The notes under the pieces: model-generated
The model's database searches: none
What the model was told of the DNA's origin: nothing
Seen by the model: the letters and a program-made list of their open reading frames with translations, nothing else
DNA from: a virus
Lineage: Duplodnaviria > Caudoviricetes
Virus record (IMG/VR): IMGVR_UViG_3300033069_001852
Length of the DNA stretch: 64,000 nucleotides
Reading direction: 5' to 3' (one strand)
Position numbers and translations under genes: made by a program
Shown: piece after piece, positions 4,403 to 63,536 of the stretch
Layout: the number at the start of each line of letters is the position of its first letter
How positions within the stretch are numbered: position 1 is the stretch's first letter

Positions 4403-7400
4403 ATGCCAATACAAGAAGGTGGAACATTTCAGCCGCACTCAAGGATCGTGAGTCCTGGAGTTTTTACGCGTGAATTTGATCAGAGCGGGATCGCCCAAGG
4501 CGTCCAAGATATCGGCGGAGTCGTCGTTGCCCCATTTCCTAAAGGTCCGGGGTTTTCTCCGACTCTTGTCCGTGATGTTGCCACACTGGAAGACCGCTTC
4601 GGCGTTGCCGACGGCACATTCTATGGCCCATATACGGCTAAGGAATACCTTTTGGAGCGGGGCTTGGTCACGGTTTGTCGCGTGGGCGCACTAACTGGCT
4701 ACCACCAGAAGTATCCTTTTGTCCTTTATGCGATAAAAGGTGAATATGACCGCAATATTGACAGCGGTTCTCTGTCTGTATCCGGTTCTGTTCTGTCGCT
4801 TTCCGATAGTCTGATCGCATCTTCTTCCGCCAACCTCAGCAATGTTTCTTCTGGAATTCTCTGGAATACAACCACGACGACGACCAGTGCGTCTTTTGTT
4901 TTTGTAACTGGATCGGTCCAAGTTAAAGGCGTTCCTTTTACTGCCACTTTTGTAAATGCGGCAGGTACTGGAACCAGTCCGTTCGGTACGGCGGCTAGTG
5001 GTTCATTGTATTACAATGGTCAGTCCGCCAATATCGGTTATCTATCGGCTACGACCGTAACCAATATTCTAATTTCAGTTAGCACCAGCAGTTTGAGTGG
5101 TAGTTCCGCTACGACCAGCAGTTTGATGAAGTATTTGTTGACCAATAGTGCGTTTTCTTCATCCTGGAATGGAACGGTCACCTTAGCTAGTGGTTCAGAT
5201 CCCTTCGATTATTCCGTCCAGAATCCTGTGTATTTGACTCAGGGCGGTATTCAAGCTATTTCTGGTGCTTGTGCGTCATATATTTACGGCATCAGCGGAA
5301 TCGTTTCGGGAGAATTCGGTGCGTATACCGGAACCTTTACTCCTAATGGCACGCCGACTTTTGATCCCTGTGCCAATGTTTGGACTTCCGGTAGTGCGGA
5401 TTACCGCGTTTTGGCGGTGTTGGGTGATACCCAGTATGGTGGTATTAACAGCAGCTTGGAAGCTCCTGGATTCAGTGGTTCTTCGATGACGACTGCGAGC
5501 CGGATTCAGAATTCTGTAACGATTCCAACAACTTACGATATCACTTTGAAATCCACCGATAGTTCCGCGACCATTGGCACGTATCGTGTTGATCTGGACG
5601 CGGCAAGCACCAAGTATATTTCCAATGTGTTTAGCGCCGATGCCACCGGCGGAGACCCTGACAAACAGGTCGCCGGTCAGAAAATTGAAGCCGCTTATTT
5701 GTATAAGTTCTTCGCCAATAGTTTGGCTACGGTTGCGGCAAACAAGAAAGATTGGTTCATTTCCGGAAGTGTTCTTCCTGATTATACCTTCGCGGGTGAA
5801 GCGCTTAAATTGGTGGATGATTATTCACTAAATTTAACGGAGGGCGATTCCCAATTCGCATTGACCAATGCGTCCACTCCGTGGGTCGTATCCCAGAAAA
5901 TTGCTCCGTGGCAGACGGGCAGCGCCGAAACGCGGTTCCGTTTGTTCAAAGTTCACACCTTAAGCGATGGTACCAACACTAATACCGATTACAAGATTGA
6001 AATATCCAACGTCAAGTTGTCCGGCACCGTCGCGGGTAGTGATTGGGGTTCTTTCACCCTCACGGTTCGCAAATACAGCGACACTGATAAGAAGCCGGTG
6101 ATTTTGGAATCTTTCCGTAATTGTAATCTTGATCCAACATCCGCAAATTATGTTGCTCGGCGGATTGGTAATGCTTATCGTTACATCGATTTCAATGGCA
6201 AAGTTCTTGAATTCGGCGATTTTAGCAACAACAGCCGTCACATTCGTATTGAAATGAATGGTGATGTTCTCCCGACCACCGCGGTGCCTTATGGTTTTGA
6301 AGCGTATTCCACGCCCATTAACAGTTCCGCGGGTCGTTGGATTCCGACGATGAAATACACCAAGGCTTCCGTGTATAGCGGCAATCCTGGAAAATATCCG
6401 TCCGGTATAACTTTTGATGACGCTCCGACCGGCGCCGATTCTGAATTGGCGAGCCTGTATCCCACCAGCTCGACTGGAATTGGGGCATCAGATGACAATA
6501 AGCAATACTTCGCTCCGTTGCCTGAATTTGGGGCTTATGGTAGCATTGGAGGTAATTCCGTGTTCGCCTTGGATGAAGTTATCACGGCCAACGGCGTCGG
6601 TTTCGGCAGTTTGTTAAGCGCCGCCTTAAGCGGTTCGGTTCCGGCTGAATATGATAGCGTCAACGAAAACACTTACACAAAGATGCGTAAGTTTGTATTC
6701 GGTTTCCAAGGTGGCTTTGATGGTCAGAGCCCCGCAATTCCGATTAATGTCGGCGCCGACATCACTGCGGGTAACACCCAGGGTTTGAATTGTGTCAATA
6801 GCACCTCCGCCGGGTCCATTGCTTACAAACAATGTATTGGCGCTTTGAGCAATGCGGATGAATTTGATATCAATCTGATTGTTGCTCCTGGCATTATTCA
6901 CCAATATCACAGCTATCTCACCAATTTGATCGTTGATATGTGTGAGCAGCGTGGTGATTGTTTCTACATTATGGATATTTACGCGGATGATGGTAACCCC
7001 AGCGCCGGACAAATTTCGGAAGTAGTAAGCTACGCCGCGCAGTTTGATACCAATTACGCCGCTGCTTATTATCCGTGGGTCAAGATTCTTGACACCAATA
7101 TCAATCAAATCGTAACGGTGCCGCCTTCCGTGGTGATGCCAGCCGTATACGCCGCGAATGATAAAGTGGCGGCCCCTTGGTTCGCGCCGGCCGGTTTGAA
7201 CCGGGGTGGAATTTCCAACGCCGTCGGCGTGACGGATCGGACGACGCATTCGGAACGGGATGATCTGTATGAGGGTAAGGTTAACCCCATTGCTATCTTC
7301 CCTGGAGAAGGCGTAGCTATCTGGGGTCAGAAGACTCTTCAGGACGCAGCGTCAGCAACGGACCGGATTAATGTGCGCCGGCTGTTAATTGACCTCAAAA

Positions 7401-7681
7401 AGTTCTTCGCTTCCACTTCGAAGTATCTTTTGTTTGAACAGAATACCTCCGCGACCCGGAATAAATTCCTGGCTATTGTCAATCCTTATATGGATTCCGT
7501 TAAACAACGGTCTGGTTTGTATAACTTCTTCGTCAAGATGGATGAGGAAACCAATACGGCAGATATCATTGATGAAAACATCTTGTATGGTAAGATCTAT
7601 ATTCAACCGACCAAAACGGTAGAATTCATCGTCTTGGACTTCAATATTTTGGCTAGTGGAGCGGTTTTTTCTAGCATTTAA
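4403..7681 (+). CDS. Contractile tail sheath protein (T4 gp18-like)
   Basis: VSPGVFTRE N-terminus; C-terminal YYPWV, PWFAPAGLNRG, NPI..FPG.G..IWGQKTLQ, RINVRRL, FEQN and IQPTKTVEFI motifs. Confidence 0.95.
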   Translation: MPIQEGGTFQPHSRIVSPGVFTREFDQSGIAQGVQDIGGVVVAPFPKGPGFSPTLVRDVATLEDRFGVADGTFYGPYTAKEYLLERGLVTVCRVGALTGYHQKYPFVLYAIKGEYDRNIDSGSLSVSGSVLSLSDSLIASSSANLSNVSSGILWNTTTTTTSASFVFVTGSVQVKGVPFTATFVNAAGTGTSPFGTAASGSLYYNGQSANIGYLSATTVTNILISVSTSSLSGSSATTSSLMKYLLTNSAFSSSWNGTVTLASGSDPFDYSVQNPVYLTQGGIQAISGACASYIYGISGIVSGEFGAYTGTFTPNGTPTFDPCANVWTSGSADYRVLAVLGDTQYGGINSSLEAPGFSGSSMTTASRIQNSVTIPTTYDITLKSTDSSATIGTYRVDLDAASTKYISNVFSADATGGDPDKQVAGQKIEAAYLYKFFANSLATVAANKKDWFISGSVLPDYTFAGEALKLVDDYSLNLTEGDSQFALTNASTPWVVSQKIAPWQTGSAETRFRLFKVHTLSDGTNTNTDYKIEISNVKLSGTVAGSDWGSFTLTVRKYSDTDKKPVILESFRNCNLDPTSANYVARRIGNAYRYIDFNGKVLEFGDFSNNSRHIRIEMNGDVLPTTAVPYGFEAYSTPINSSAGRWIPTMKYTKASVYSGNPGKYPSGITFDDAPTGADSELASLYPTSSTGIGASDDNKQYFAPLPEFGAYGSIGGNSVFALDEVITANGVGFGSLLSAALSGSVPAEYDSVNENTYTKMRKFVFGFQGGFDGQSPAIPINVGADITAGNTQGLNCVNSTSAGSIAYKQCIGALSNADEFDINLIVAPGIIHQYHSYLTNLIVDMCEQRGDCFYIMDIYADDGNPSAGQISEVVSYAAQFDTNYAAAYYPWVKILDTNINQIVTVPPSVVMPAVYAANDKVAAPWFAPAGLNRGGISNAVGVTDRTTHSERDDLYEGKVNPIAIFPGEGVAIWGQKTLQDAASATDRINVRRLLIDLKKFFASTSKYLLFEQNTSATRNKFLAIVNPYMDSVKQRSGLYNFFVKMDEETNTADIIDENILYGKIYIQPTKTVEFIVLDFNILASGAVFSSI

Positions 7682-8626: not shown

Positions 8627-9247
8627 ATGAAATTGGCTAAACTTTTAATGGAGAGTGAGACCGTAGGCAAAACCTTCGTCTCCGTGGATATTCAGCCAGA
8701 GTATGAAAACGGGTTCGACTTCCAATTGTACACCCTTGTAGAGTTTTTAAATACCCATTACGATGATATGGCTCAGTTGGTTTTCCTGTATAATGGTCAC
8801 GAGACCTTGGGCATGATAAGGGAGATGGATTATAAAATGTGGTGGTTGGAAAACGGTTTGCGGGAGGACATCGTTGACTCTGCCATATTTTATGATAAGG
8901 GCTATGCGTTTTTCCGCTATTGTATGGATAGTGGCTTGGATCACGATGTCACGGTAAATTTTATTAGATTCCTATACGAAAATGATATTCGGGATTCTCG
9001 GGAAATGGATCGGAATATGTGGGCGAAGTATCTGCGCCAATATCGTAGAACGGATAAGAAAGAAGCCCACGAATTACTGGCCAGTTCAGCGGATTGCGTA
9101 AACATTCCTGATTTGATGGATTTCATAAAACGCTTTTCCAACCTTGTTCTCACCGGTGGCGGCATTAATGAATGTCTGAAAGAAGTGGAAATTGCGCTTC
9201 AAGCCTTAAATAAATCTTACAAAATTTTCTCCAAATTTACATACTGA
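8627..9247 (+). CDS. Isochorismatase-like cysteine hydrolase fold protein with MKLAKLLME leader
   Basis: FVSVDIQ (DxQ) near the N-terminus and LVLTGGGINEC (G-x4-C nucleophile loop) near the C-terminus. Confidence 0.5.
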   Translation: MKLAKLLMESETVGKTFVSVDIQPEYENGFDFQLYTLVEFLNTHYDDMAQLVFLYNGHETLGMIREMDYKMWWLENGLREDIVDSAIFYDKGYAFFRYCMDSGLDHDVTVNFIRFLYENDIRDSREMDRNMWAKYLRQYRRTDKKEAHELLASSADCVNIPDLMDFIKRFSNLVLTGGGINECLKEVEIALQALNKSYKIFSKFTY

Positions 9248-9482: not shown

Positions 9483-9643
9483 CACGAAGACTAGGTACTT
9501 AAGTACTTTAAGCCCTGGTTGCTTTTAAGCTTGCTTTACACTGGGCTTGTTGCGCTTCTGGGCTTAAGTACATCATTTTTTTAAACCCTTGTCAACATTA
9601 TTCAATCTTATTTGGATATTTATATTCAGTCTGAATTTAAAAT

Positions 9644-10183
9644 ATGATATCCATTGTCCCACCCAATAGTCTGGCTAAAAAATATGACCGAATAATCTTC
9701 TGTGATTTAGACGGCGTGCTTGTCGATTTTAAACAAGGGGCATTAAATTTAGGCGTGGATATTGGCGGACAGGACAAACCGCACCCCAATGAGGACAAGC
9801 TTTGGCAGGCGGTTGATGCTTATGGTAAGGATAAATTTTTTGCTAATCTACCGTGGATGCCCGACGGCCAGCAACTCTGGCGTTTTATTAATGAAAATTT
9901 CTTGGATGTAAAAATTTTAACCGCATTGGGTAAGTCGGACAAAAAGGACAATCTGACTCGCAAGGGCAAAGGTGAATGGTTACAAAAAAACATTCCCGAG
10001 CTTCGTTTGCGGAACGTTCATATGGTCCCCAATAAACACGCCAAAAAACATTATGCTAGTCCAGGAGATGTCTTGATCGATGACACGGATATATGTATCA
10101 ATGAGTGGTTAACGAAGGGTGGAATCGGAATTTTACATAAAAATACCCAAGAAACAATACAGAGGCTGGCTAAATTAATATGA
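9644..10183 (+). CDS. HAD-superfamily 5'(3')-deoxyribonucleotidase (NT5C-like)
   Basis: FCDLDGVLVDF (motif I), ILTA (motif II), K..W, LIDD (motif IV), W...GGIGILH. Confidence 0.85.
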   Translation: MISIVPPNSLAKKYDRIIFCDLDGVLVDFKQGALNLGVDIGGQDKPHPNEDKLWQAVDAYGKDKFFANLPWMPDGQQLWRFINENFLDVKILTALGKSDKKDNLTRKGKGEWLQKNIPELRLRNVHMVPNKHAKKHYASPGDVLIDDTDICINEWLTKGGIGILHKNTQETIQRLAKLI

Positions 10184-11058
10184 ATAAATCAAATCTAAAA
10201 GAATTTGTCAAACGGACACTGGAAGCGATGGAAGACTTGACCAACATAAAAAAGAAACAATCTGGCGTCAGTCCCGATAAACTAAAACATTCTGGATGTC
10301 CGAAGTGTAAAAATCCAATGACCACATTGAATTCCACCAAACCGCCGATGTGGGGCTGCGACAAATGTAAACATACCTGGAAAGAAGCGGTCAATGAAAA
10401 CGACGAACCAATAAAAAGAGCATATTCTAAATACAAAGCGGTGTGTAGAAAATCCCCCTGGAAATTCGATGAAAAAAATATAGCTTCATTTGGAGTATTT
10501 AAAAAACACTACCTGAGTAAAAAAGACAAAGTAAATGAAGAGCACGGCGATGTCCATTATTGGGGTGCGCAACCAAAAGATAAAAATAGTAGTATCTCTA
10601 CGGGCTATAAAGGGACCGATCCGATAAAAACCCCTGTGACTGAGGCTGGTCAACCAAAAATGAGTCCTATGGATTTTGAGATTAAAAGGCGCGAAATCGA
10701 AAATATCCTTAATAAAGGCGGTCGACGCAACGCCGTCGTAGATTTTTTTGATCAAAAAGAAATTATAGACCTAACAGGCGATACGGATAAGGATGGCGCA
10801 ATTGTAATCCAACCAAACAAAGCTTTAGACATATATCGCGGGGGTATTTTTATCTACCCAACCCACTATGAGATTTTACTTAAACTTGTTGATGGTAAAA
10901 AGATTGATCTTCGTAAAGTAACGGATTGGGACCAGGTCAAGAAAACCATTCGTGGTTATAGCGGATTAAACGAATCCATCAATAACAAAGCGCTCCACCG
11001 ATTGGTTATCGAGGCGGCTAAAGAAGTCGTCGCGGAAAGTCGTAATAGGAAAAAATGA
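10180..11058 (+). CDS. Hypothetical protein, Zn ribbon, probable head-internal protein
   Basis: CPKC..CDKC; LKEFVKRTLE leader and repeated VNE/VTE/LNE segments. Confidence 0.55.
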   Translation: MNKSNLKEFVKRTLEAMEDLTNIKKKQSGVSPDKLKHSGCPKCKNPMTTLNSTKPPMWGCDKCKHTWKEAVNENDEPIKRAYSKYKAVCRKSPWKFDEKNIASFGVFKKHYLSKKDKVNEEHGDVHYWGAQPKDKNSSISTGYKGTDPIKTPVTEAGQPKMSPMDFEIKRREIENILNKGGRRNAVVDFFDQKEIIDLTGDTDKDGAIVIQPNKALDIYRGGIFIYPTHYEILLKLVDGKKIDLRKVTDWDQVKKTIRGYSGLNESINNKALHRLVIEAAKEVVAESRNRKK

Positions 11059-13271
11059 TACAATTCCGGATTTACAACAAACACCTTGACCAAAATCTCT
11101 GGAATGAGCAGAAAGAGCTTGATCCGGAGGTGCGGACTATTCTCCTGAAGATCGCTAAGGATTATTATGAGGGGAACAAAGAAATTGAAGGTGCGCTGGT
11201 CGACGCGTATATCGTCGGTTCCTCCGCAAATTACAATTGGACTCCGGATAGCGATATAGACTTACATCTGGTCGTTGACGCAAGTAAATTAGATTTGGAG
11301 GAGGAAACGGCCCGTTCATTATTCGAATTGATGGCCAATAAATGGAACCAAAATCACGCCATTAAAGTCAAAGGTCACAATCTTGAACTCTACATTCAGG
11401 ACATCAACCACAATGTGCGCTCTTCTGGAATTTATTCACTTACCACCGGCGAATGGGTAAAAGAACCCCATCCGGAAAAAGTGGAAATCGACGAAGAAAA
11501 TATTAAACAAAAATACCGGAATATGGTAGCCCGGATAGACAACGCCGTCCAGGAACAAAGCGTGGTCAAGATGAAGAAGGTGATGGAAGATTTACGGAAC
11601 CAACGCAACACCGGCCTTGCCCGCGCAGGTGAATTTAGCACGGAAAATATTGTTTTCAAGATGCTGCGTCGGTTTGGCAACATCGAAAAGTTAAAGAAGG
11701 CAACGCATCAGGTTTATGACCGGGAAATGACTCTGACGGAAGGCATTAAAAATCCCCACGATTTGATTATTGGTTACGTCACCCCCTCTTTAAAAGTAAA
11801 CGCAAAGGATTATTCCCAGATCAAGGGGCATACTGATTTTATTGATGTGAAGAGTTGGTATGGTGTCACCGCCTGGCGGTTCCGTCGTGATCTAAATTTA
11901 TTATTCTGGTGGAAACCGCATACGGGTGAGATTAGTCAAGATGAACGGGATACGGTCGTGGAATTTCTGGAACAGAAGTACAAAGCGCGTAACATCACTC
12001 AAAAATTTTTAGTTCCTGGGCCAGGTATGAATCAGGATAACTGGGACATTTCCCACGGCGTGAAAGAGACCCTTCAACAGGAGGAAGATGGGGGTCGGAT
12101 TAATCCCGATGATCTAATCGTTGGCTATATCGACAAAAATATGGAGATAAAATCCACCTCCAGTCGTATCGCCAAGACCCACGGACATTTCAGCGGTCAA
12201 TACTGGAATGGTCAGGATAGGACCATTGGCTGGCGCTTCCGCAAAGATTTAGGAGTATTATACTGGTGGGATGGTGACCCGGATGATCGTTCGGTGAGTA
12301 ATGCCGACCGGCTGGCGGTGTTAGATTACCTGCGTGAAAAATATCATTTCACGGGACCAATTCAACAAAAAATCATTACCATCGGTGATAACGATACCCG
12401 GGACGATAAACGAAGAGCCCACGGGGTGTTTGAAATGGCCGATTTACAGCTAAAAGGTAAAACTCCCTATGCGGGGGAAGTGCGGCTTAAAGATTTGCCG
12501 ATTGAAGCCGCCAAAGAAAACATTGTGGTTTTTCGCAACGACAAGGAAACCTTTTTCCCCGCCGGATTTACCTTGGTTTATTTCATGGATTCTGACCAAG
12601 CCGTTCAAGCCATTAAAACCGGCGGCATTCCCTACCTTATGGTGCCCCGTGGGACATTTTATTCCGGCGGCTCACCAATCACCGACATCTGGAAGAAAAA
12701 ATTTCAAAAACCAGGTACCGAACATATCATTGGTGTATTAGAAGGCGTAAGCAATGACCAGGAAATTTTCGTGGATATGCTTACCGTCCGGCCACATTGG
12801 CAAAGAAATCACGTCGCCACACGGATGCTTAATCAGTTAAAAACAATGTTCCCCAACGCACAAGTTAAAACTTCCGGCCAGACGGCGACCGGTGAAAAAT
12901 TTTTTAGTGCGCTGAAAGAAGAGGATACCAACCCTAATCGCAGCTTTACATGGATAACCGGATTAACCAACGACAATTTAGAATCGGTTTCCGAAAAATA
13001 TAGCGGGCACATCAACAATGTTACCCATCAAAAACTTCAAATAAAAAATTCGCAGAAATTTCCTACGGGGCATACAATTGCCTGGCGCTATGTTTATGAT
13101 GGCGACTTCATAAATTTTTGGAATTCACCCTCTGCCGATCAAACGGAAGAAATTTACTCCCACCTTAAACAAAAATACGGAATTACGCCCAAACGCAATG
13201 TCATCATACCGTCCCACAAACATATGTTTACGCCGCGGACAGATGAGCCGCTTGCGGAGCTTGCGGTTTAG
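11055..13271 (+). CDS. Multidomain protein: Pol-beta-type nucleotidyltransferase + three repeats of an unknown domain + GNAT acetyltransferase
   Basis: IVGSSANYNW..DSDIDLHL (GS...DxD) with a downstream ELY; repeats G......WR(F/Y)..D....(F/Y)W...L.QKY; VDMLTVRPHWQRNHVATRML (GNAT motif A) and QT..GEKFF. Confidence 0.75.
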   Translation: MIQFRIYNKHLDQNLWNEQKELDPEVRTILLKIAKDYYEGNKEIEGALVDAYIVGSSANYNWTPDSDIDLHLVVDASKLDLEEETARSLFELMANKWNQNHAIKVKGHNLELYIQDINHNVRSSGIYSLTTGEWVKEPHPEKVEIDEENIKQKYRNMVARIDNAVQEQSVVKMKKVMEDLRNQRNTGLARAGEFSTENIVFKMLRRFGNIEKLKKATHQVYDREMTLTEGIKNPHDLIIGYVTPSLKVNAKDYSQIKGHTDFIDVKSWYGVTAWRFRRDLNLLFWWKPHTGEISQDERDTVVEFLEQKYKARNITQKFLVPGPGMNQDNWDISHGVKETLQQEEDGGRINPDDLIVGYIDKNMEIKSTSSRIAKTHGHFSGQYWNGQDRTIGWRFRKDLGVLYWWDGDPDDRSVSNADRLAVLDYLREKYHFTGPIQQKIITIGDNDTRDDKRRAHGVFEMADLQLKGKTPYAGEVRLKDLPIEAAKENIVVFRNDKETFFPAGFTLVYFMDSDQAVQAIKTGGIPYLMVPRGTFYSGGSPITDIWKKKFQKPGTEHIIGVLEGVSNDQEIFVDMLTVRPHWQRNHVATRMLNQLKTMFPNAQVKTSGQTATGEKFFSALKEEDTNPNRSFTWITGLTNDNLESVSEKYSGHINNVTHQKLQIKNSQKFPTGHTIAWRYVYDGDFINFWNSPSADQTEEIYSHLKQKYGITPKRNVIIPSHKHMFTPRTDEPLAELAV

Positions 13272-14962: not shown

Positions 14963-15454
14963 ATGACCGAACTAATTAATCCAAATGAGATATTCTGGAC
15001 TGCCTTCGAACCAAAAGTGAAGAACAGGTTCATTATGTATCTTGACGGTGTCCCCGCTTTCACTATTCGTAAGACTGACCGCCCAAAGGTACAGAGCGAA
15101 AAGAAAGCTCTGGACCACATCAACACCCAGCGTTATTACAAGGGCAAGACCACTTGGCAAGATATGACGATGGAACTTTACGACCCTATTGTCCCGTCCG
15201 CCGCGCAAGCCGTGATGGAATGGATTCGGCTTTCTCACGAAAGCGTAACGGGCCGCGATGGTTATCAGGACTTCTACAAGAAGGATGTCACCATCAACGT
15301 TTTGGGTCCCGTCGGTGATAAAGTGGAAGAGTGGGTTCTCAAAGGGGCCTTCCCGATTGCCGCAGACTTTCAAGATGTTGATTGGCAGGACAGCGGCGAT
15401 CCACTGGGCATTACGGTCACCCTCAGTATTGACTACGCAATTCTACAATACTGA
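14963..15454 (+). CDS. Tail tube protein (T4 gp19-like)
   Basis: FEPK..NRF, GKTTW, LYDPI.PS.AQAVMEW, GRDGY..FYKKD, GD.VEEW.LKGAFP, LSIDYA; 163 aa. Confidence 0.92.
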   Translation: MTELINPNEIFWTAFEPKVKNRFIMYLDGVPAFTIRKTDRPKVQSEKKALDHINTQRYYKGKTTWQDMTMELYDPIVPSAAQAVMEWIRLSHESVTGRDGYQDFYKKDVTINVLGPVGDKVEEWVLKGAFPIAADFQDVDWQDSGDPLGITVTLSIDYAILQY

Positions 15455-15569: not shown

Positions 15570-16580
15570 ATGTCCATTATTAGATTAAAACCGATAGTTG
15601 AAGCTACCTTGTCTGAAAAAACTGCTTTTGGCAGTCGCTCTGGCCAGAAATCCCTTCGCCGGTTTGAGGTTAAATCGGAAGTTTTCCAACGGCTTTTAAA
15701 TGGACCTTTCAAAAACTATTCCCACCGTGAGCTACCGGAATATGAAAAAATATATCGGCTCGCTGAAAAACGCCGTAGCAAATCCAGAGGCGCTCCTGTG
15801 GAATATGAAATCATTGTGCCCCGTAAATCAGAACGCAGCTCAAAGGATTCCTGGAATACCTACACGGTATTGTTGAGTAAATTGCCTAGTTGGGCCGGCT
15901 GGCCCAAGCGTTCCCATTCCGTGATATTTTTCGTTGGGTCGATTAAGACGGATACCCAGTATGGGAGTCATATTTATAGGCTTATCCCCAAGAACGGGGC
16001 GAAAATTGCGGTGTCCACTCACCACGACATTTTAGAGCCGCCCGCCTGGCCTCACATGCGCCAACTCTTGTCCCGGAATGGTCAATTCATTGATATCACC
16101 GTGCTTTGTCAATTACTTGGTCGCATGATCAGTTGGGCGCAGGTGGCTAAAAAATATAAAGACAAAGCTCCGAACGTGTTCGGCAGCGACTTAAATGACC
16201 TTAAATCTCAAAATTTAAATAATTGGGTTATGAATGTGCGGTTAGAAAATTATGCTAAACTCATAAAACTTTTGGATGCTTCCCTAAACCAAAAAACCCT
16301 GCCCCAAATTAAAAACGCCTTGGACAGCGCTTTTACCAACTCCCCGTTGGGGGAATGGCAAAAAAATAGATTCTTGGAGTATAAGGAAACTTTTGAATTT
16401 TATGCTAATTTGGTGGAGAAATATGGCGGCTGGGAAAACTTATTGAGTGAAGCGTTGGATCCGGTTAAAAATGGTTTCGAACTGATGACGGCAGAGAATG
16501 TCCGCCCCAACCATAATAAATCGTGTGAGGCCTGGACCGATGACGCGTGTTTGATGAAATATGACAAGGGGAATTTTTAA
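15570..16580 (+). CDS. ADP-ribosyltransferase-fold paralogue 1 (divergent)
   Basis: Shares LPSW..WPKRS.S, YG, P.NGAKI, L.P..NGF and EAWTD with the next three ORFs; has IYRL in place of YRG and lacks the central Ser. Confidence 0.5.
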   Translation: MSIIRLKPIVEATLSEKTAFGSRSGQKSLRRFEVKSEVFQRLLNGPFKNYSHRELPEYEKIYRLAEKRRSKSRGAPVEYEIIVPRKSERSSKDSWNTYTVLLSKLPSWAGWPKRSHSVIFFVGSIKTDTQYGSHIYRLIPKNGAKIAVSTHHDILEPPAWPHMRQLLSRNGQFIDITVLCQLLGRMISWAQVAKKYKDKAPNVFGSDLNDLKSQNLNNWVMNVRLENYAKLIKLLDASLNQKTLPQIKNALDSAFTNSPLGEWQKNRFLEYKETFEFYANLVEKYGGWENLLSEALDPVKNGFELMTAENVRPNHNKSCEAWTDDACLMKYDKGNF

Positions 16581-17455
16581 TGTTAAAACTGTCCAACATT
16601 TTGACGGAGACGACCAGACGGAGCCAGAAGATTCGCAAACCCATCTTTATGAATGCTTTGGTCCGGGGTCAATTCTCTTCTGCTTATAACAAAATGTTGG
16701 AGGGACGGAGGATCTATCGGGGCATAACCGGTAGTGCGGAATGGCCTTATTGGATTGTCAAACCAGGCTCCGCGGAGCGCAAATCACGCAATACTTCCAA
16801 TTTTTATACCGGCTTGATTGATAACTTACCAAGTTGGAAAAACTACCCCAAACGCAGCCGTAGTATCATATGTTCTACCGGACGTGGTGGAGCAGCTTCG
16901 TTTGGTAATGTTCTGGATGTCTTTCCAAAAAATGGAGCCAAAATTGGCATTTGTTCAGCGGAAGATTTCTGGTTATCCTTCCCGGCCACCCACACGCGGC
17001 TTGATCTTCAGGACATGTCCTATTTCAACGCGTATTTCATTTCTATTTTTTACCAAGCCTCTCACAAGCTTTCGCATCTAGCCTCCGAACTGACGGATAA
17101 AACTTATCCCGCATTTATCAAGCTTGCGAATGAGTTGATTAACAAAGAAAAATACATTGAAACGATTAACATTCAGAGGTCGGTAGACCGTTTACCTTAC
17201 GGCGTATCTTCGGATATGTTGGTGAAGGATGTCCGGTTTAATTTTAACAACGATTGGGAAAAATACTTTGATGAATTGTTGAATCCTGAAATTAACGGCT
17301 TTGTGATTACTACGATTGAAGATTACCAAATACCAACCGATTCCGCCAGCGACATCGAAATTTGGACAGACGCACCTTCACTAATGATTAGCCATCACCA
17401 TCAACAGGAATTATTTTCCTCCGATCTTGCGGCTCGGCCTGGAGGCACGATATGA
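16580..17455 (+). CDS. ADP-ribosyltransferase-fold paralogue 2
   Basis: IYRG ... SIICSTGRGGAASFG ... DIEIWTD gives an R-S-E-like triad; MLKLSNILTE leader. Confidence 0.6.
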   Translation: MLKLSNILTETTRRSQKIRKPIFMNALVRGQFSSAYNKMLEGRRIYRGITGSAEWPYWIVKPGSAERKSRNTSNFYTGLIDNLPSWKNYPKRSRSIICSTGRGGAASFGNVLDVFPKNGAKIGICSAEDFWLSFPATHTRLDLQDMSYFNAYFISIFYQASHKLSHLASELTDKTYPAFIKLANELINKEKYIETINIQRSVDRLPYGVSSDMLVKDVRFNFNNDWEKYFDELLNPEINGFVITTIEDYQIPTDSASDIEIWTDAPSLMISHHHQQELFSSDLAARPGGTI

Positions 17456-18429
17456 TAAAACTCTCTTACTTGTTAATGGAAGATGAGAATGAGCGTGATC
17501 CCAGCTTGAGGAAGTCTCGGGAAATCCCGGTCACTGCCGCCATTAACATCTTACGCACCCAGTGTACGGAAGCGGTAAAACTATTCAGTGAGCACCCAGC
17601 GGGAACCGGTTTATACCGTGGTTATCGGAGTGATAATTATTGTTTGGAAATTGACCCAACAACCCGGGAACGAACGGGCAGCCGCAACTTATATAACGCA
17701 TTAACTTCCATTTTACCGTCCTGGTCAGAATTCCCCCAGCGTAGCCATTCCGTGATGTTCAGTCCGACTCCGGAAATCGCCAAGGTTTATGGTAAAATTT
17801 ATTGGTTATTTCCTTTTGACCAATCGTCGATTGCGCATTGTAATAACCGTGATTGTTGGTATTCTTTTGAATACGCTACCAAGAGGCTCGGTAGGGGGAT
17901 TAGCAGTATTGATTATGTCATGGATTTATTTTCAATACTGATCGCATATTCAGTGATTTCAACACGGAAAGATATTGATGGGAATTATTATTTCAATACT
18001 AAAGTGGGCAAGCATTTCACCAAACGTGAATATACGGTTTCAAATGCGCAAGCCTTGTTGAAAGAGATGAAACGTATTACTCCCGCAATTTTAAAGCTTT
18101 GTCAGAAAGAAATTGACAAACCAAAAAAGGATTTTGAAATCGTCGGCATATGCGGGGATATCCTTAAAAATTTTAAAGGGGATTGGGTGGAATACTTCGA
18201 TTTACTATTAAGTCCGGAAAACAATAAAATAGGTTTGACAACTATTTCCGAAACCGTGAAGTTTCCCCGGGTGGAAATGTGGACGACCGGAAAATGTATT
18301 ATGGTTAACCCCCAGACCGATTTTAACTTTTACAACCTTGGCGACACTTCAATCTGCGGCACATTTTTTAAACATAATATTCAGGTGGCGAAAACCGCCG
18401 GTGCCATCCACCTAATGGGGATTCCATGA
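17452..18429 (+). CDS. ADP-ribosyltransferase-fold paralogue 3
   Basis: LYRG ... SVMFSPTPEIAKVYG ... VEMWT; MIKLSYLLME leader. Confidence 0.6.
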   Translation: MIKLSYLLMEDENERDPSLRKSREIPVTAAINILRTQCTEAVKLFSEHPAGTGLYRGYRSDNYCLEIDPTTRERTGSRNLYNALTSILPSWSEFPQRSHSVMFSPTPEIAKVYGKIYWLFPFDQSSIAHCNNRDCWYSFEYATKRLGRGISSIDYVMDLFSILIAYSVISTRKDIDGNYYFNTKVGKHFTKREYTVSNAQALLKEMKRITPAILKLCQKEIDKPKKDFEIVGICGDILKNFKGDWVEYFDLLLSPENNKIGLTTISETVKFPRVEMWTTGKCIMVNPQTDFNFYNLGDTSICGTFFKHNIQVAKTAGAIHLMGIP

Positions 18430-19253
18430 TAAAACTTTCTCAACTATTGAATGAGTCGGATAATGTGGCAGGCGGCCCCCGGACAAAACAGATCGCCAGT
18501 GCCGCAGCAGGACAGAAACTTCTGATCCATAAAGCTTCAGCCGCTCTAGAAGCTGCCCGCCGGGATTGTGGAATTTACCGTGGGGTGAAAACCCTACCCA
18601 ATGAATATGCGGCCTACCGTTTTGTCCGGCCCGCTAAAGCTTATCGCATGGCTAAAAACACAACCAATTTTACCAATGCGGTGTTGGATGTTATTCCAAG
18701 CTGGAAGTCTTGGCCCAAGCGCAGTCAGAGCATCGTCTGTTCCAATGCGCCCGACCGCGCCGGCGGCTATGGTATAACCTTTGGGGTTTTTCCTTTTAAC
18801 GGAGCTAAGATCGGAATCAGTTCCGATGCGGATTTCTGGATGTCTTTCGAAAGGTTAAATGATCGTTTGGGTTGGGATGTCGCCACCTTCAACGATCAGA
18901 TGGCCATTGCCCTAGAGGGGATAGGGATATATGAAGATTTGGAGCGGATACTACCGCGGGGAATACAAAAAATCTTTAATCACATTGACAGCAAATTTAT
19001 ATTGTACCCCAATTTTTTCGAAAACCTTTTTGCTTCAAGTTCCTATCGCAGCCGTGACCCTATATTAAAGGACATGGCCAAATATATGACTGAAGGCGCA
19101 GAGAAATATTTTGACGAATTACTAAATCCTGAGGCGAACGGTTTTAAATTAGTCACCATTGAAGAATACGATTTGAGTCAGTATCCAGCAATGGAGGTCT
19201 GGACCGATAGTCCGGCTCTATTAATTGATCGCAAGGTGGTGGCTTTACCTTAA
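18426..19253 (+). CDS. ADP-ribosyltransferase-fold paralogue 4
   Basis: IYRG ... SIVCSNAPDRAGGYG ... MEVWTD; MIKLSQLLNE leader. Confidence 0.6.
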   Translation: MIKLSQLLNESDNVAGGPRTKQIASAAAGQKLLIHKASAALEAARRDCGIYRGVKTLPNEYAAYRFVRPAKAYRMAKNTTNFTNAVLDVIPSWKSWPKRSQSIVCSNAPDRAGGYGITFGVFPFNGAKIGISSDADFWMSFERLNDRLGWDVATFNDQMAIALEGIGIYEDLERILPRGIQKIFNHIDSKFILYPNFFENLFASSSYRSRDPILKDMAKYMTEGAEKYFDELLNPEANGFKLVTIEEYDLSQYPAMEVWTDSPALLIDRKVVALP

Positions 19254-44575: not shown

Positions 44576-45601
44576 ATGAGATTGGTTGAATTAATACTAG
44601 AGGGGTTAGAACAAGATTATTACATCAAAAAGACCACCGATTCTGAGGTAAAAGAATTGCTTTTGCGTGGTCACTATCTTGGGGCTTGGCCATTCGCGGG
44701 GTCACAATACAAAGACTATATCTATGGTATCTACCTCAAGCGCGCCGCTAAGCAATTACATTTAACCTCACCTCCGGAAGGCCAAGAACCGCCGAGTGAC
44801 GACGCGCTTATCGGTTGTATTGTTTATGGCTTTCCAGAATTTCATGCCTCTTCCTATGTTTCCAAGTGGCTTCGGACCTTGTTAAACCCCGATGAATCAA
44901 TCGAAGATATCTACCAAAATATCCGGGCCATCATTGAAAAAGACAAAGAGGAAGAGATTAAGGCCCAACAACGTGGTTATCCTTTTAAATCTAAAGCCCG
45001 CGTCATCATCCATAACATTCTTAATGCGACCAATGTTCAAGACAATCAGATTTTGGAATTGAAGAGATTGTATATCCTTCCAGAAATGGATTTAAAAAAC
45101 ATTGAGTCGTTTGCCATTGGTAAAGGCAATAAGGCAATTTTCGATAACAATCCCAATATTCAAGCGATTGTGTCTTTTTCTGATTCTCGGGTTGGTCACC
45201 ACGGCGGCGTTTATCAAGCGACGAACGCTTTGTACGCGGGTATTAATAAACCGGGACTCCACCGATATATCTACCCCCGGGATACTCTAGCGGCCACCAT
45301 CAAAAAGTATCAGAAACGATATGATGATCTTGTTTTTCAATATCCCAAACAACAACCGGGAAAAGAAGAACCCGAACAAGACATCAACTACTACGGGTTG
45401 GATATTTCTAAACGTGAAAAAATCGTTGTCCGCTATTTAAAAGGTATTCTTCCGCAACTGGACGATGAAACCTTAAAAGATGCGATCAATAAAGTATTGG
45501 ATATGATTGAAAAATCCCCCCAGAAGACCTTCCAGTTTAAAGAAATCAAGGAAATGGTCATTTCCGAACTCTTGGTTGAGTATATTCTCCAACGTAAATA
45601 A
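44576..45601 (+). CDS. Mom-family acetyltransferase (copy 2) with MRLVELILE leader
   Basis: HYLG, LIGCIVYG.P, ELKRL, NIESFAI, IVSFSD..VGHHGGVYQATN..Y.G, HRYIY. Confidence 0.75.
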   Translation: MRLVELILEGLEQDYYIKKTTDSEVKELLLRGHYLGAWPFAGSQYKDYIYGIYLKRAAKQLHLTSPPEGQEPPSDDALIGCIVYGFPEFHASSYVSKWLRTLLNPDESIEDIYQNIRAIIEKDKEEEIKAQQRGYPFKSKARVIIHNILNATNVQDNQILELKRLYILPEMDLKNIESFAIGKGNKAIFDNNPNIQAIVSFSDSRVGHHGGVYQATNALYAGINKPGLHRYIYPRDTLAATIKKYQKRYDDLVFQYPKQQPGKEEPEQDINYYGLDISKREKIVVRYLKGILPQLDDETLKDAINKVLDMIEKSPQKTFQFKEIKEMVISELLVEYILQRK

Positions 45602-57104: not shown

Positions 57105-58520
57105 ATGATTCGTTTGAAAGAAATAGTCCCCTTTAATAAAACCGACGCGGTTGAGAAGGGATTGAGTAAGAAATATCGTGATCTTGCCGCCGGCACTTTT
57201 GGCTTGGATATCGAATTTCATACCGCTTCATCAGATGACGACTTTGACCCCAGCGATTATATTGACGAATTTGTCAGAGAAGTATCCCGTAGTCATAGTA
57301 GTATGGATGAATATTATGATTGGTTGAACGACCAGCGTGAATGGGATAATCGCAGATATCGGGGAGATAACTGGGATGATTCTCACGGACCGGAGGATGA
57401 AGATAACTGGCTAAAATATCATCCCGACCCCGAGCGATCTGATTATTCAGAAGGGCCCGATGGCGATTCTTTGTTTGATCAGGCTCGGGATGAGTGGTTG
57501 GATGATCGCCGGCGGATCGAACGCTCTTATAGTTCGTGGGAATCCCGTGACCGGGAAGATTATGTCCACGAATGGTTCAGCGAAAAAATCTCCGATGGGA
57601 CATGGAGTGATTATGTTGAAGCTCCCATTGTCGACCGCAGGGTAGACGATCAGGCAATAGTAGATACTGATGATTACATCGAATCGCTAACGGGCCAACC
57701 CGGTTCTAAATCGGGTTGGGAGGTGGGTGAAGACGGCGCGGATATAATGGAAATTCGGACGCCGCCGATGACCTACACTCCGGAAAATCTTTCCCTTTTG
57801 TCCAAGGTCATGTCTTATTGTTATAAGAATTATGAAGCTGCCGGTGATACATCGGCGCACGTTCATATTGGGATGGAAAAAGACTCCACGATTTTCGACT
57901 TATTAGCCGCAACGACTTTGGTCGATGAAAAAGCGATCCAAAAGGATATTAGCGCGGACCGGGAACTAGAACAATTTGCGGCCTTAGCGGATGCCATTCA
58001 TAACAAAATCATAGATGCTATTGACAACTTTTTACATCAACGGGAAATGGAAATTTCTCAAATGATTGGGAAGTCTTTCACGGTTCCAAATGAGCAACTA
58101 AAAACCTACATAAAAAACGCAGTAAGTCGATACTCAGGAACCAACATTCAGTCATTTTTTAGACACCAAACTTTGGAATTTAGATATTTTAGTTCCCAAA
58201 TTGCGCCTCATATGGGGAAATTTGAACAATGGATAAAATACTTTATGTTAATTGCGAAGATCGCACGTAGTCGGAACCAATTCACCATCGGTAAAACTAA
58301 ACCATATCCGCTTGCCTTTACCCGGGAAGGCAAGGGAATGACGAAAATTACTATTCTGGATGAAAAAGGTAAAATGCCAAAGGCGACAGGAATGCCGTCG
58401 GATCATTTGCGCTCACAACCACCTGATCCGGGAGCCGAAGAGAAGAAAATTCAGGCTATGTTAAAGAAAAAAGCGCATGAACCTAACCAACCTGAATTAC
58501 AATTTTCTAAACTGCCTTAA
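57105..58520 (+). CDS. Putative amidoligase (COOH-NH2 ligase type 2) with acidic insertion
   Basis: TFGLDIEF, W....D....EIRTP, SAHVHIG, RY...N, TLEFRYF; MIRLKE leader with TATTTATA 4 nt upstream. Confidence 0.7.
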   Translation: MIRLKEIVPFNKTDAVEKGLSKKYRDLAAGTFGLDIEFHTASSDDDFDPSDYIDEFVREVSRSHSSMDEYYDWLNDQREWDNRRYRGDNWDDSHGPEDEDNWLKYHPDPERSDYSEGPDGDSLFDQARDEWLDDRRRIERSYSSWESRDREDYVHEWFSEKISDGTWSDYVEAPIVDRRVDDQAIVDTDDYIESLTGQPGSKSGWEVGEDGADIMEIRTPPMTYTPENLSLLSKVMSYCYKNYEAAGDTSAHVHIGMEKDSTIFDLLAATTLVDEKAIQKDISADRELEQFAALADAIHNKIIDAIDNFLHQREMEISQMIGKSFTVPNEQLKTYIKNAVSRYSGTNIQSFFRHQTLEFRYFSSQIAPHMGKFEQWIKYFMLIAKIARSRNQFTIGKTKPYPLAFTREGKGMTKITILDEKGKMPKATGMPSDHLRSQPPDPGAEEKKIQAMLKKKAHEPNQPELQFSKLP

Positions 58521-62499: not shown

Positions 62500-63150
62500 T
62501 CAAAAAGTTACTCTAATTCCAGCGCCGGCGTGGGGGTACTTGGTATTCTTATATTGATAGATTGTGATCTTATCATCCGGAAATTCAGCCACGCCAATTA
62601 AACCATTTGACTTGGTAGCATAGTGACTTGCGGGATGCAATCTACCCCAGATAGCATAGGTCGGAGTAAGAACTGATAACCCATTGTCTTCAATTACCCA
62701 CGTAATCGGTAAATCATTTACTAGACTAAAACGATGAGCTTCATTCCAGTTACCAGTCGCAGCGGACATATCGCCAACAAAGCACCAGACATGATTTCCC
62801 GTCTTGTTCAATTTTTCTCCCCACGCTAAACCGGCAGCAATAGACGGGATGCCGCCCACGATTGCGCTACTAACCACCTTCTGTTCTTTGAAACATAATG
62901 CGATGGACTTACCTTGTAAAATCCGCTCCTTTAGAATGTCCTTGGGGACGCCTTTCAATAGACATTGATAATGGCTGCGCCAGGTACAACAGACCCAGTC
63001 CCCTTCCTTTACCTTCTCAAAGATCTTGAGCATCTTATCTTCATTATCGCTGTATAAATGGATTGGGGCTCGAATTTGTTTGTTATTGAAACAATTGCCG
63101 ATGTCGGTCTCAAAATCAATCAATTCTTGTGCGGTGATGTTAGTTATCAT
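62500..63150 (-). CDS. TPP-dependent dehydrogenase E1-alpha-like subunit (short form)
   Basis: PIHL, WRSHY..L.KG, SAIVGG, FVGD...G...E...IEDN (TPP-binding motif). Confidence 0.85.
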   Translation of the reverse strand: MITNITAQELIDFETDIGNCFNNKQIRAPIHLYSDNEDKMLKIFEKVKEGDWVCCTWRSHYQCLLKGVPKDILKERILQGKSIALCFKEQKVVSSAIVGGIPSIAAGLAWGEKLNKTGNHVWCFVGDMSAATGNWNEAHRFSLVNDLPITWVIEDNGLSVLTPTYAIWGRLHPASHYATKSNGLIGVAEFPDDKITIYQYKNTKYPHAGAGIRVTF

Positions 63151-63536
63151 ATTTTTTGTTTTAATTGTTCCATATACGACAGAACAAATTCGGCTTCACT
63201 ATCGCAAGCAATTCCATCTGACAAATTTTTGTAGAGTCGGTAGTTCAGGATGGAATATTCGCCGAAATCTTCAAACAACCATTCCATGCCAATATTCGGA
63301 GCCTTGGCTGCGCCTTCTTCGGTGTCATAGATCCTCCGCACAATCGGAAGAATACAACCAGCGAAAAACCCTTCCTGACCAATCTTCTCATCAACTTCCT
63401 TCATGTAATCGTTCTTATTACCAGTCAAAAGATCAACGGCTTTCTGTAAAGAAATAGCACATTTACATTTGTTGAAGTCATCCAATTGATCTAAAAGATG
63501 AGTCTTTTCCCATTTTTCTACTAATATATTTTTCAT
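63147..63536 (-). CDS. Small protein resembling the N-terminus of T4-like major capsid protein
   Basis: LVEKWEKTHLLDQL......CA..L and FAG.ILPIVRRIY. Confidence 0.45.
   Translation of the reverse strand: MKNILVEKWEKTHLLDQLDDFNKCKCAISLQKAVDLLTGNKNDYMKEVDEKIGQEGFFAGCILPIVRRIYDTEEGAAKAPNIGMEWLFEDFGEYSILNYRLYKNLSDGIACDSEAEFVLSYMEQLKQKI

Follow-up and report, generated by a model that had tools for sequence, protein, structure and literature searches.

In phage T4, the prohead protease gp21 recognizes the motif L/I-X-E and cuts after the glutamate (PMC9026906), while the internal proteins and Alt enter the prohead by means of capsid-targeting sequences of 10–20 residues (PMC9026906; PMC5694885). 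In the giant phages phiKZ, 201phi2-1 and SPN3US, many head proteins are cut after glutamate, in some cases at several sites, by a diverged gp21 homologue, and the ejection or inner-body proteins are ejected as cargo into the host (PMC5694885; PMC9026906). Another group of phage proteins to be considered here is that of the polyvalent proteins, whose listed domain classes include Pol-beta nucleotidyltransferases and GNAT acetyltransferases (Iyer, Burroughs, Anand, de Souza, Aravind 2017; PMC5512222). Release of their domains has been proposed to take place through an embedded zincin-like peptidase (MPTase), which is frequent but not obligatory (PMC5512222). In this work, we analysed a stretch of 64,000 nucleotides from a tailed phage (IMG/VR record IMGVR_UViG_3300033069_001852; Duplodnaviria, Caudoviricetes; hereafter named the window). 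An unbroken open reading frame (ORF) on its + strand, at 11055–13271, encodes a product of 738 residues (85 kDa) that joins a Pol-beta nucleotidyltransferase (NT) module, a GNAT-like (G) module and three copies (R1 to R3) of a repeat that we call WR. On the basis of motifs, structural models and analogy, we lean with moderate confidence towards a cargo polyprotein that would be cut by a T4-type prohead protease into the nucleotidyltransferase, the GNAT-like enzyme and the three WR domains, and delivered together with the DNA.

The resemblance to the T4 internal proteins IPI–III and to Alt would lie in the nature of the head cargo (enzymatic or anti-defence), and is found in the L/I-X-E motif and in amphipathic leaders of 10 residues, which are carried here by relatives and neighbours of the polyprotein. 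The T4 cargo proteins differ in being single units that lose short propeptides, whereas up to five folded modules would originate here from one chain, and the polyprotein itself has no N-terminal leader. Alt is trimmed at both ends, and cutting at multiple sites is known in T4 for scaffold proteins, the fragments of which are discarded. The giant-phage proteins differ by their S/A/G-X-E sites and by propeptides of more than 100 residues, whereas the sites described here have I, L or V at P3 as in T4 and the leaders measure about 10 residues. A string of enzymes produced from one precursor is not described in the searched passages of PMC5694885 and PMC9026906, and in a full-text search on prohead proteases, ejection proteins, giant phages and the inner body, the term polyprotein was absent from the papers that joined several of these subjects. 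With the polyvalent proteins, the locus shares the joining of conflict-type domains from unrelated families in a single phage chain (nucleotidyltransferase, GNAT-like and three WR), a late or structural gene neighbourhood (between tail sheath and tail tube genes) and extensive domain shuffling. The difference is that searches of Pfam (E up to 1) and PHROGs (E up to 0.1) revealed no peptidase in the polyprotein, which displays instead a motif of the prohead-protease type at every junction. Polyvalent proteins with nucleotidyltransferase and GNAT domains are known, but the metallopeptidase proposed for their release is lacking from the present family. An earlier interpretation of this DNA, made from its letters without database searches (hereafter the sequence-only reading), had presented both enzyme classes as typical polyvalent-protein domains and gp21-type proteases as cutting after glutamate, and the literature bears it out on both points (PMC5512222 and PMC9026906, respectively).

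Residue mapping confirmed the order of modules given by this reading, i.e. nucleotidyltransferase, repeat, repeat, GNAT-containing module and repeat, with glutamate sites at the module ends (Table 1). Its positions for LTE (11733–11741) and LKE (12912–12920) correspond to residues 227–229 and 620–622. The longer motifs HGVKE and HGVFE are also present, at residues 334–338 (12054–12068) and 456–460 (12420–12434), but the intervals that it had assigned to them, 12060–12068 and 12426–12434, span VKE and VFE only. The whole polyprotein contains 15 occurrences of [ILV]xE, and ∼8.5% of randomly chosen positions are no more than 2 residues away from one; the chance of finding one at four out of four module boundaries is ∼5e-5. 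At the possible fifth site, LAE735, the relative P0005 reads SIAE.

The predicted structure of the whole chain is consistent with this subdivision. The full-length AlphaFold model (mean predicted local distance difference test score (pLDDT) of 79; predicted template modelling score (pTM) of 0.46) contains five well-folded units. Low-confidence stretches are located at 339–349, 442–459 and 623–631 and in the tail 721–738, with a dip at 221–230. As the sequence-only reading had anticipated, the domain boundaries coincide with the glutamate sites, all of which are found at helix ends beside low-pLDDT linkers and none within a folded domain. In the model, LTE229, VKE338, VFE460 and LKE622 are in exposed segments that abut these linkers, and the pTM of 0.46 agrees with independent beads.

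As judged from sequence comparisons, the homologues strengthen the junction motif far beyond what a single protein can offer, with more than 250 relatives of shuffled architecture obeying it. A search of 5.8 billion proteins yielded 166 multidomain relatives, in which the same modules are recombined at exactly the boundaries of the polyprotein; in P0013 and P0036, for example, NT is directly followed by G. The NT modules end with [ST]-[VIL]-x-[ED], beyond which the sequences are wholly divergent. Before the G module, E at P1 and I, L, V or M at P3 were found in 40/40 homologues (background of 8.5%); among 35 unique contexts of this junction, P1 and P3 contain 3.8 and 2.7 bits of information, respectively, while P2 and P5 are variable. 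AIAE precedes internal NT modules, and H-x-[IV]-x-E terminates 33 of the 41 complete R copies. Besides, [ILVM]xE ends 118 of 162 fused NT modules (73%) versus 25 of 65 stand-alone ones (38%), a difference with a Fisher value of 2e-6 when kinship is ignored.

Two more recurrent and unannotated modules, G[FYV]G[AS]GIPExDRL and GFDPTSxGPN, were seen in homologues P0008–P0039 and P0041–P0082; neither has a Pfam or PHROG family. The residue before the GxGxGIPExDRL module is E in 31/32 relatives, and D or E precedes the GFDPTSxGPN module in 23/24, with V, I or L at P3. Where GxGxGIP follows the G module, the E is placed a few residues further on.

Modules that stand alone or come first display short leaders ending with a similar motif. 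Many stand-alone R proteins begin with MIKLKSLLLE, MINLKQLILE, MIKLKEILFE or MLIRQLLLE. In the G-first proteins P0094 and P0093, a leader of 10 residues (MEFKNWLLYE) and one of 17 residues ending with ILSE, respectively, immediately precede the MP with which the module begins. In the T4 record, gp24 starts with MAKINELLRE, Alt with MELITELFDE and gp22 with MLKEQLIAE, and the gp23 propeptide ends with FLTE, followed by AEIGG. Inside the window, near-identical leaders of ∼10 residues ending with [ILM]-x-E head unrelated ORFs at 8627–9247, 15570–19253, 44576–45601 and 57105–58520. They read MKLAKLLME (ORF at 8627), MLKLSNILTE (16580), MIKLSYLLME (17452) and MIKLSQLLNE (18426), the ORF at 15570 beginning likewise; MSIIRLKPIVE, MRLVELILE and MIRLKE are further examples. 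By their sequences, these leaders look like T4 capsid-targeting sequences.

Table 1. Coordinates of the modules, junction sites and neighbouring elements of the polyprotein gene in the window
Feature	Coordinates	Strand	Details
Module 1, Pol-beta nucleotidyltransferase and helical bundle, ends TLTE	11055..11741	+	residues 1-229; 26.8 kDa
Module 2, WR repeat R1, ends HGVKE	11742..12068	+	residues 230-338; 12.8 kDa
Module 3, linker and WR repeat R2, ends HGVFE	12069..12434	+	residues 339-460; 14.2 kDa
Module 4, GNAT-like acetyltransferase, ends ALKE	12435..12920	+	residues 461-622; 18.2 kDa
Module 5, WR repeat R3 and disordered tail	12921..13268	+	residues 623-738; 13.4 kDa
Junction site 1, L227-T228-E229	11733..11741	+	coil right after helix 209-225; block pLDDT dips to 69
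Junction site 2, V336-K337-E338	12060..12068	+	end of last helix of R1; linker 339-349 (pLDDT <50) directly after
Junction site 3, V458-F459-E460	12426..12434	+	low-confidence 442-459 before; GNAT-like M461-A462 directly after, pLDDT 89 from 461
Junction site 4, L620-K621-E622	12912..12920	+	end of helix 611-621; then linker 623-631, pLDDT <50
Possible fifth site, L733-A734-E735	13251..13259	+	3 residues from C-terminus, in tail 721-738 (pLDDT <50)
5'-3' deoxyribonucleotidase gene, first in operon	9644..10183	+	phrog_2643 1.8e-32
Zinc-ribbon ORF of 292 residues, stop overlapping polyprotein start (AAAAAATGA)	10180..11058	+	PF14311 4e-05
TATTTATA box, candidate late-promoter element	9617..9624	+	20 nt upstream of first operon gene (9644)

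Several observations weigh against a polyprotein that is cut inside the head. It has no leader, since it starts with MIQFRIYN within the NT domain and contains no [ILVM]xE among its first 30 residues, a start that offers no evident route into the prohead; most NT-first relatives likewise begin directly with the NT domain. The capsid module and the protease gene are both located outside the window. Only 30% of relatives show the motif at the position extrapolated for the C-terminal side of the G module. It is also partly intrinsic to the domains: the conserved His of the R motif belongs to the last helix, and in the 38% of stand-alone NT proteins that end with [ILVM]xE, the motif is often followed by another 1–3 residues. 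In addition, six nucleotidyltransferases of cultured phages stop at the end of the NT domain, with a Glu there in DSL-LC02 alone. A candidate split NT–R pair in S-H34 and MC09, suggested by a tblastn run-on past the nucleotidyltransferase stop, was dropped; the R profile left the next ORF undetected (E >1).

These data could point to an enzyme that remains uncut and intact in the cytoplasm, the [ILV]-x-E motifs being ordinary domain-end residues carried along by shuffling. Its nucleotidyltransferase and GNAT domains would modify one class of substrate (small molecule, tRNA or host protein), with the WR copies serving for binding or as spacers. The lack of a leader in spite of tagged neighbours and the motif at the end of stand-alone NT proteins would fit this scenario. 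The same holds for the resemblance of the NT fold to an aminoglycoside adenylyltransferase, AAD(9), and for the commonest architecture of the relatives, in which NT precedes between one and four R units (81 of them in 47 proteins) and which could mean functional cooperation. Bifunctional ANT-AAC resistance enzymes do exist. We nevertheless hold an uncut enzyme, the main rival, to be less likely than a cut polyprotein: a structural motif is not expected to be common to five unrelated folds, and neither are the 40/40 and 31/32 frequencies when the upstream sequences are quite different, nor the replacement of the motif by T4-like leaders of 10–17 residues in N-terminal modules. Nor do the pTM of the model and its disordered linkers suggest that the domains are held in a fixed arrangement. 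Cleavage might alternatively occur at the same glutamates but away from the prohead protease, through a Glu-specific protease of the host or the phage in the cytoplasm, after injection, or by self-cleavage of WR. The missing leader would suit processing outside the head, and self-cleavage could be envisaged for an R domain with invariant His and Arg and a conserved C-terminal H-x-[IV]-x-E. However, the motif is the same at junctions without an adjacent R (NT before G in P0013 and P0036; GxGxGIP junctions), the Pfam and PHROGs searches found no peptidase domain in the polyprotein, and both motif and leaders specifically match the T4 head system, which makes cleavage elsewhere improbable in our view.

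A leader could also be provided by the gene upstream. The ATG of the polyprotein is inside the stop of the 292-residue ORF (ATGA overlap, AAAAAATGA), and a −1 slip on the A-run (AGG AAA AAA TGA, 11047–11058) would fuse both into a leader-bearing precursor of ∼1030 residues, which would settle the targeting problem. Compared with the upstream ORF, the polyprotein is indeed read in the −1 frame, the stop comes after six A's, and a tRNA-Lys slip at AAA-TGA would read into ATG ATA CAA. Moreover, the upstream ORF begins with the leader-like MNKSNLKE, and the homologue in locus L005 has its own N-terminal leader, MNKDLKKLIDDSLNE. But an overlap of the ATGA type is ordinary translational coupling, neither the 370 collected relatives nor loci L004–L007 contain a homologue of the upstream ORF, and a stimulatory structure was neither searched for nor seen. 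We therefore rank this frameshift as the least probable of the scenarios considered here.

The explanation that we favour remains a cargo polyprotein built like beads on a string, from a large phage related to T4 and with Microcystis phage Mel-JY01 as its nearest isolate. The sequence-only reading had likewise inferred that the prohead protease releases five separate modules inside the head, which the present data support in part. The gene would probably be expressed at a late stage, within an operon located between those for the sheath and the tube of the tail, and the 85-kDa chain would enter the prohead. A T4 gp21-type (S77) protease would then cut it after Glu229, Glu338, Glu460, Glu622 and perhaps Glu735. 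The expected products would be a nucleotidyltransferase of 27 kDa, a GNAT-like acetyltransferase of 18 kDa and three gelsolin-fold WR domains of 13–14 kDa. Carried into the host along with the DNA, the released modules would act at an early stage, covalent modification of host targets related to defence or takeover being their most plausible action. The modular anatomy, the placement of the motifs at domain ends, the conservation of the junction motif across the family and the T4-like leaders of stand-alone modules and neighbouring genes are what the analysis shows; packaging, cleavage, injection and targets are what we infer.

Polyproteins released by a viral protease are familiar from RNA viruses. 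If cleavage does occur at the junctions described here, the capsid-targeted cargo of T4 and the polyvalent proteins would unite in one mechanism, in which a protease of structural maturation doubles as a releaser of modular injected effectors. In terms of annotation, [ILV]-x-E between folded modules could serve as a rule that would predict mature products in hundreds of unannotated phage proteins. Leaders and junctions might also offer opportunities to load several proteins at fixed stoichiometry into engineered capsids.

Among the individual modules, the Pol-beta nucleotidyltransferase proposed by the sequence-only reading is well supported. Module 1 scores above the Pfam cut-offs for PF22600 (29.3 bits versus 27) and PF01909 (22.8 versus 21) and matches phrog_36119 at 1e-39. 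With a conservation of at least 90% across 59 sequences, residues G55-S56, D67, D69 and E111 form the hG[GS]...DxD motif with a third acidic residue. The module is modelled by AlphaFold with a pLDDT >90. Its best Foldseek likeness is AAD(9) (6xz0, E of 1.3e-4), and a Z of 7.5 was obtained with minimal archaeal nucleotidyltransferases in the VIA structure search. When the whole 738-residue model was submitted to a wide VIA search, the helical bundle 142–228 dominated the matches, and the G module was thus not covered.

The GNAT assignment of module 4 is supported by its look-alikes, while its Pfam profile stayed under the threshold. With the language-model search of the Atlas, the best look-alikes reached 0.95 with 190 shared features, and the ten best are all GNAT proteins, mostly viral. 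In contrast, Acetyltransf_1 scored 16.8 against a cut-off of 20.7 (E of 0.009). The module also matches phrog_3082 at 8e-5. Sequence-profile searches of the PDB gave nothing useful for the whole alignment or the G module, the GNAT protein RibT being a weak match to module 4 (E of 0.25). At the position of the acetyl-CoA motif A (R/Q-x-x-G-x-G/A), module 4 reads QRNHVA, in which the glycines are absent; R124 and N125 of the G module (protein residues 584–585) are invariant in the family alignment. We also observed a block of ∼35 residues, IPYLMVP.GTF.SGG.PITDIWKKKFQ.PGTEH (12630–12740; residues ∼526–560), that is invariant in seven diverse members. It is much better conserved than the remainder of the module and is partly of low confidence in the model. 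This block is unusual for a GNAT and may correspond to a substrate-binding insert.

The WR repeat is a newly defined family of 12–14-kDa units with a confidently predicted fold. The three copies recognized by the sequence-only reading are indeed versions of one domain, as BLASTP aligns R1 with R2 at 2e-19, R1 with R3 at 3e-4 and R2 with R3 at 5e-4. The family profile recovers R1 at 1.9e-24, R2 at 7.6e-21 and R3 at 4.1e-20, with no other match in the window. The shared residues that it had listed (NP..I.G, H, WR[FY], W and L..KY) are visible in the repeat alignments. Its view of WR as an unrecognised family stands as far as sequence families are concerned: no Pfam family was found in R1 or in 41 WR members, and the PHROG matches of the polyprotein cover NT and GNAT only, not the repeats. 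The fold, however, is recognizable as gelsolin-like. An exhaustive profile search of 1.84 billion clustered representatives, on which the family set rests, returned 143 members, whereas a word-based search for short R1–R2 proteins yielded only 1; the stand-alone members measure 83–160 residues. Giant profile matches (>2000 residues) align to profile positions 54–85 only; two are GNAT-bearing polyvalent-like proteins and one is a lectin/PA14 protein, which makes this match probably spurious.

Modelled alone with 41 family members, R1 reached a pLDDT of 88.6 and a pTM of 0.83. Its best structural neighbours in VIA are fragmin F2-F3 (Z of 7.4 over 97 residues, root-mean-square deviation of 3.5) and fragmin F3 (Z of 7.3), followed by ProGel and adseverin (Z of 6.4), and almost all of the top 20 are chains of the gelsolin family; a Z below 8 is in the range where the tool warns of a common arrangement only. 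Foldseek matched the single R1 to the gelsolin family at 2e-3, and the whole chain to six-repeat gelsolin and villin at 2e-8. The identity of R1 to gelsolin domains is only 4–15%, and R1 has no Pfam gelsolin match. Since the Z values are in the warned range and there is no sequence similarity, we call the fold gelsolin-like and do not claim homology. R1 had no match at E <1e-3 in a structure search of BFVD, and the Atlas gave no usable match for it. Gelsolin-homology domains (gelsolin, villin, fragmin and Asgard archaeal gelsolins) resemble WR as domains of ∼100–120 residues in tandem copies; they differ in that the conserved residues of WR (G, H, WR[YF], W, H) are peculiar to the WR family. 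The terms gelsolin-like, bacteriophage and phage-encoded were not found together in any paper of the full-text literature, and gelsolin is not mentioned in the text of PMC5512222. It is tempting, though quite improbable, to consider the WR domains as true phage relatives of gelsolin that would bind actin-like filaments of the host (MreB, FtsA, ParM) after injection, within a widespread and undescribed system of polyprotein cargo released by the prohead protease in large T4-related phages. To our knowledge, there is no actin in the likely hosts.

The polyprotein gene is located between the genes for the tail sheath (4403–7681; phrog_23, 1e-68) and the tail tube (14963–15454; phrog_4542). It closes an operon of three overlapping genes, which start at 9644, 10180 and 11055. 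The octamer TATAAATA/TATTTATA is present in 15 copies in the window for 4.7 expected, a number reached by 0/100 shuffles. Of the 15 copies, 12 have the + strand orientation TATTTATA, and nine of these are positioned 5–33 nt upstream of + gene starts (4363, 8615, 9617, 19996, 22356, 31011, 42994, 45639 and 57093), including a box before the tail sheath gene. This distribution makes TATTTATA a possible late-promoter box, with an orientation reverse to that of T4.

The closest isolate, Mel-JY01, has a sheath protein 42% identical to that of the window. In its genome, the sheath and tube genes are adjacent, and upstream of them are genes for a capsid protein of the gp23 type and for a prohead protease of the S77 family (PF03420, 6e-30). 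Four related contigs were found in IMG/VR, and those that contain both flanking genes hold a homologue of the polyprotein between sheath and tube. CheckV estimated two related contigs as 15–22% complete at 51–82 kb, which suggests that the genome is very large; a contig of 185 kb that carries the polyprotein also exists. PF03420 was not found in the related fragments G001 and G002, which are 15–22% complete, and control genomes were equally silent, which leaves this negative without weight. In the window, an ORF of 129 residues on the − strand (63147–63536), far from any capsid gene, is a weak match to the major capsid protein of Mel-JY01 at residues 25–86 of the latter (33% over 67 residues, E of 7e-4).

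A deoxyribonucleotidase gene is also found directly upstream of the polyvalent gene in loci L004 (368–883), L005 (3749–4261) and L006 (8800–9306). In the homologue P0119, the deoxyribonucleotidase is a C-terminal module, so that a gene of some relatives is a module in another. Finally, the polyprotein gene shares its last 44 bases (13228–13271) with a homing endonuclease gene (536 residues, − strand) that meets it tail to tail.

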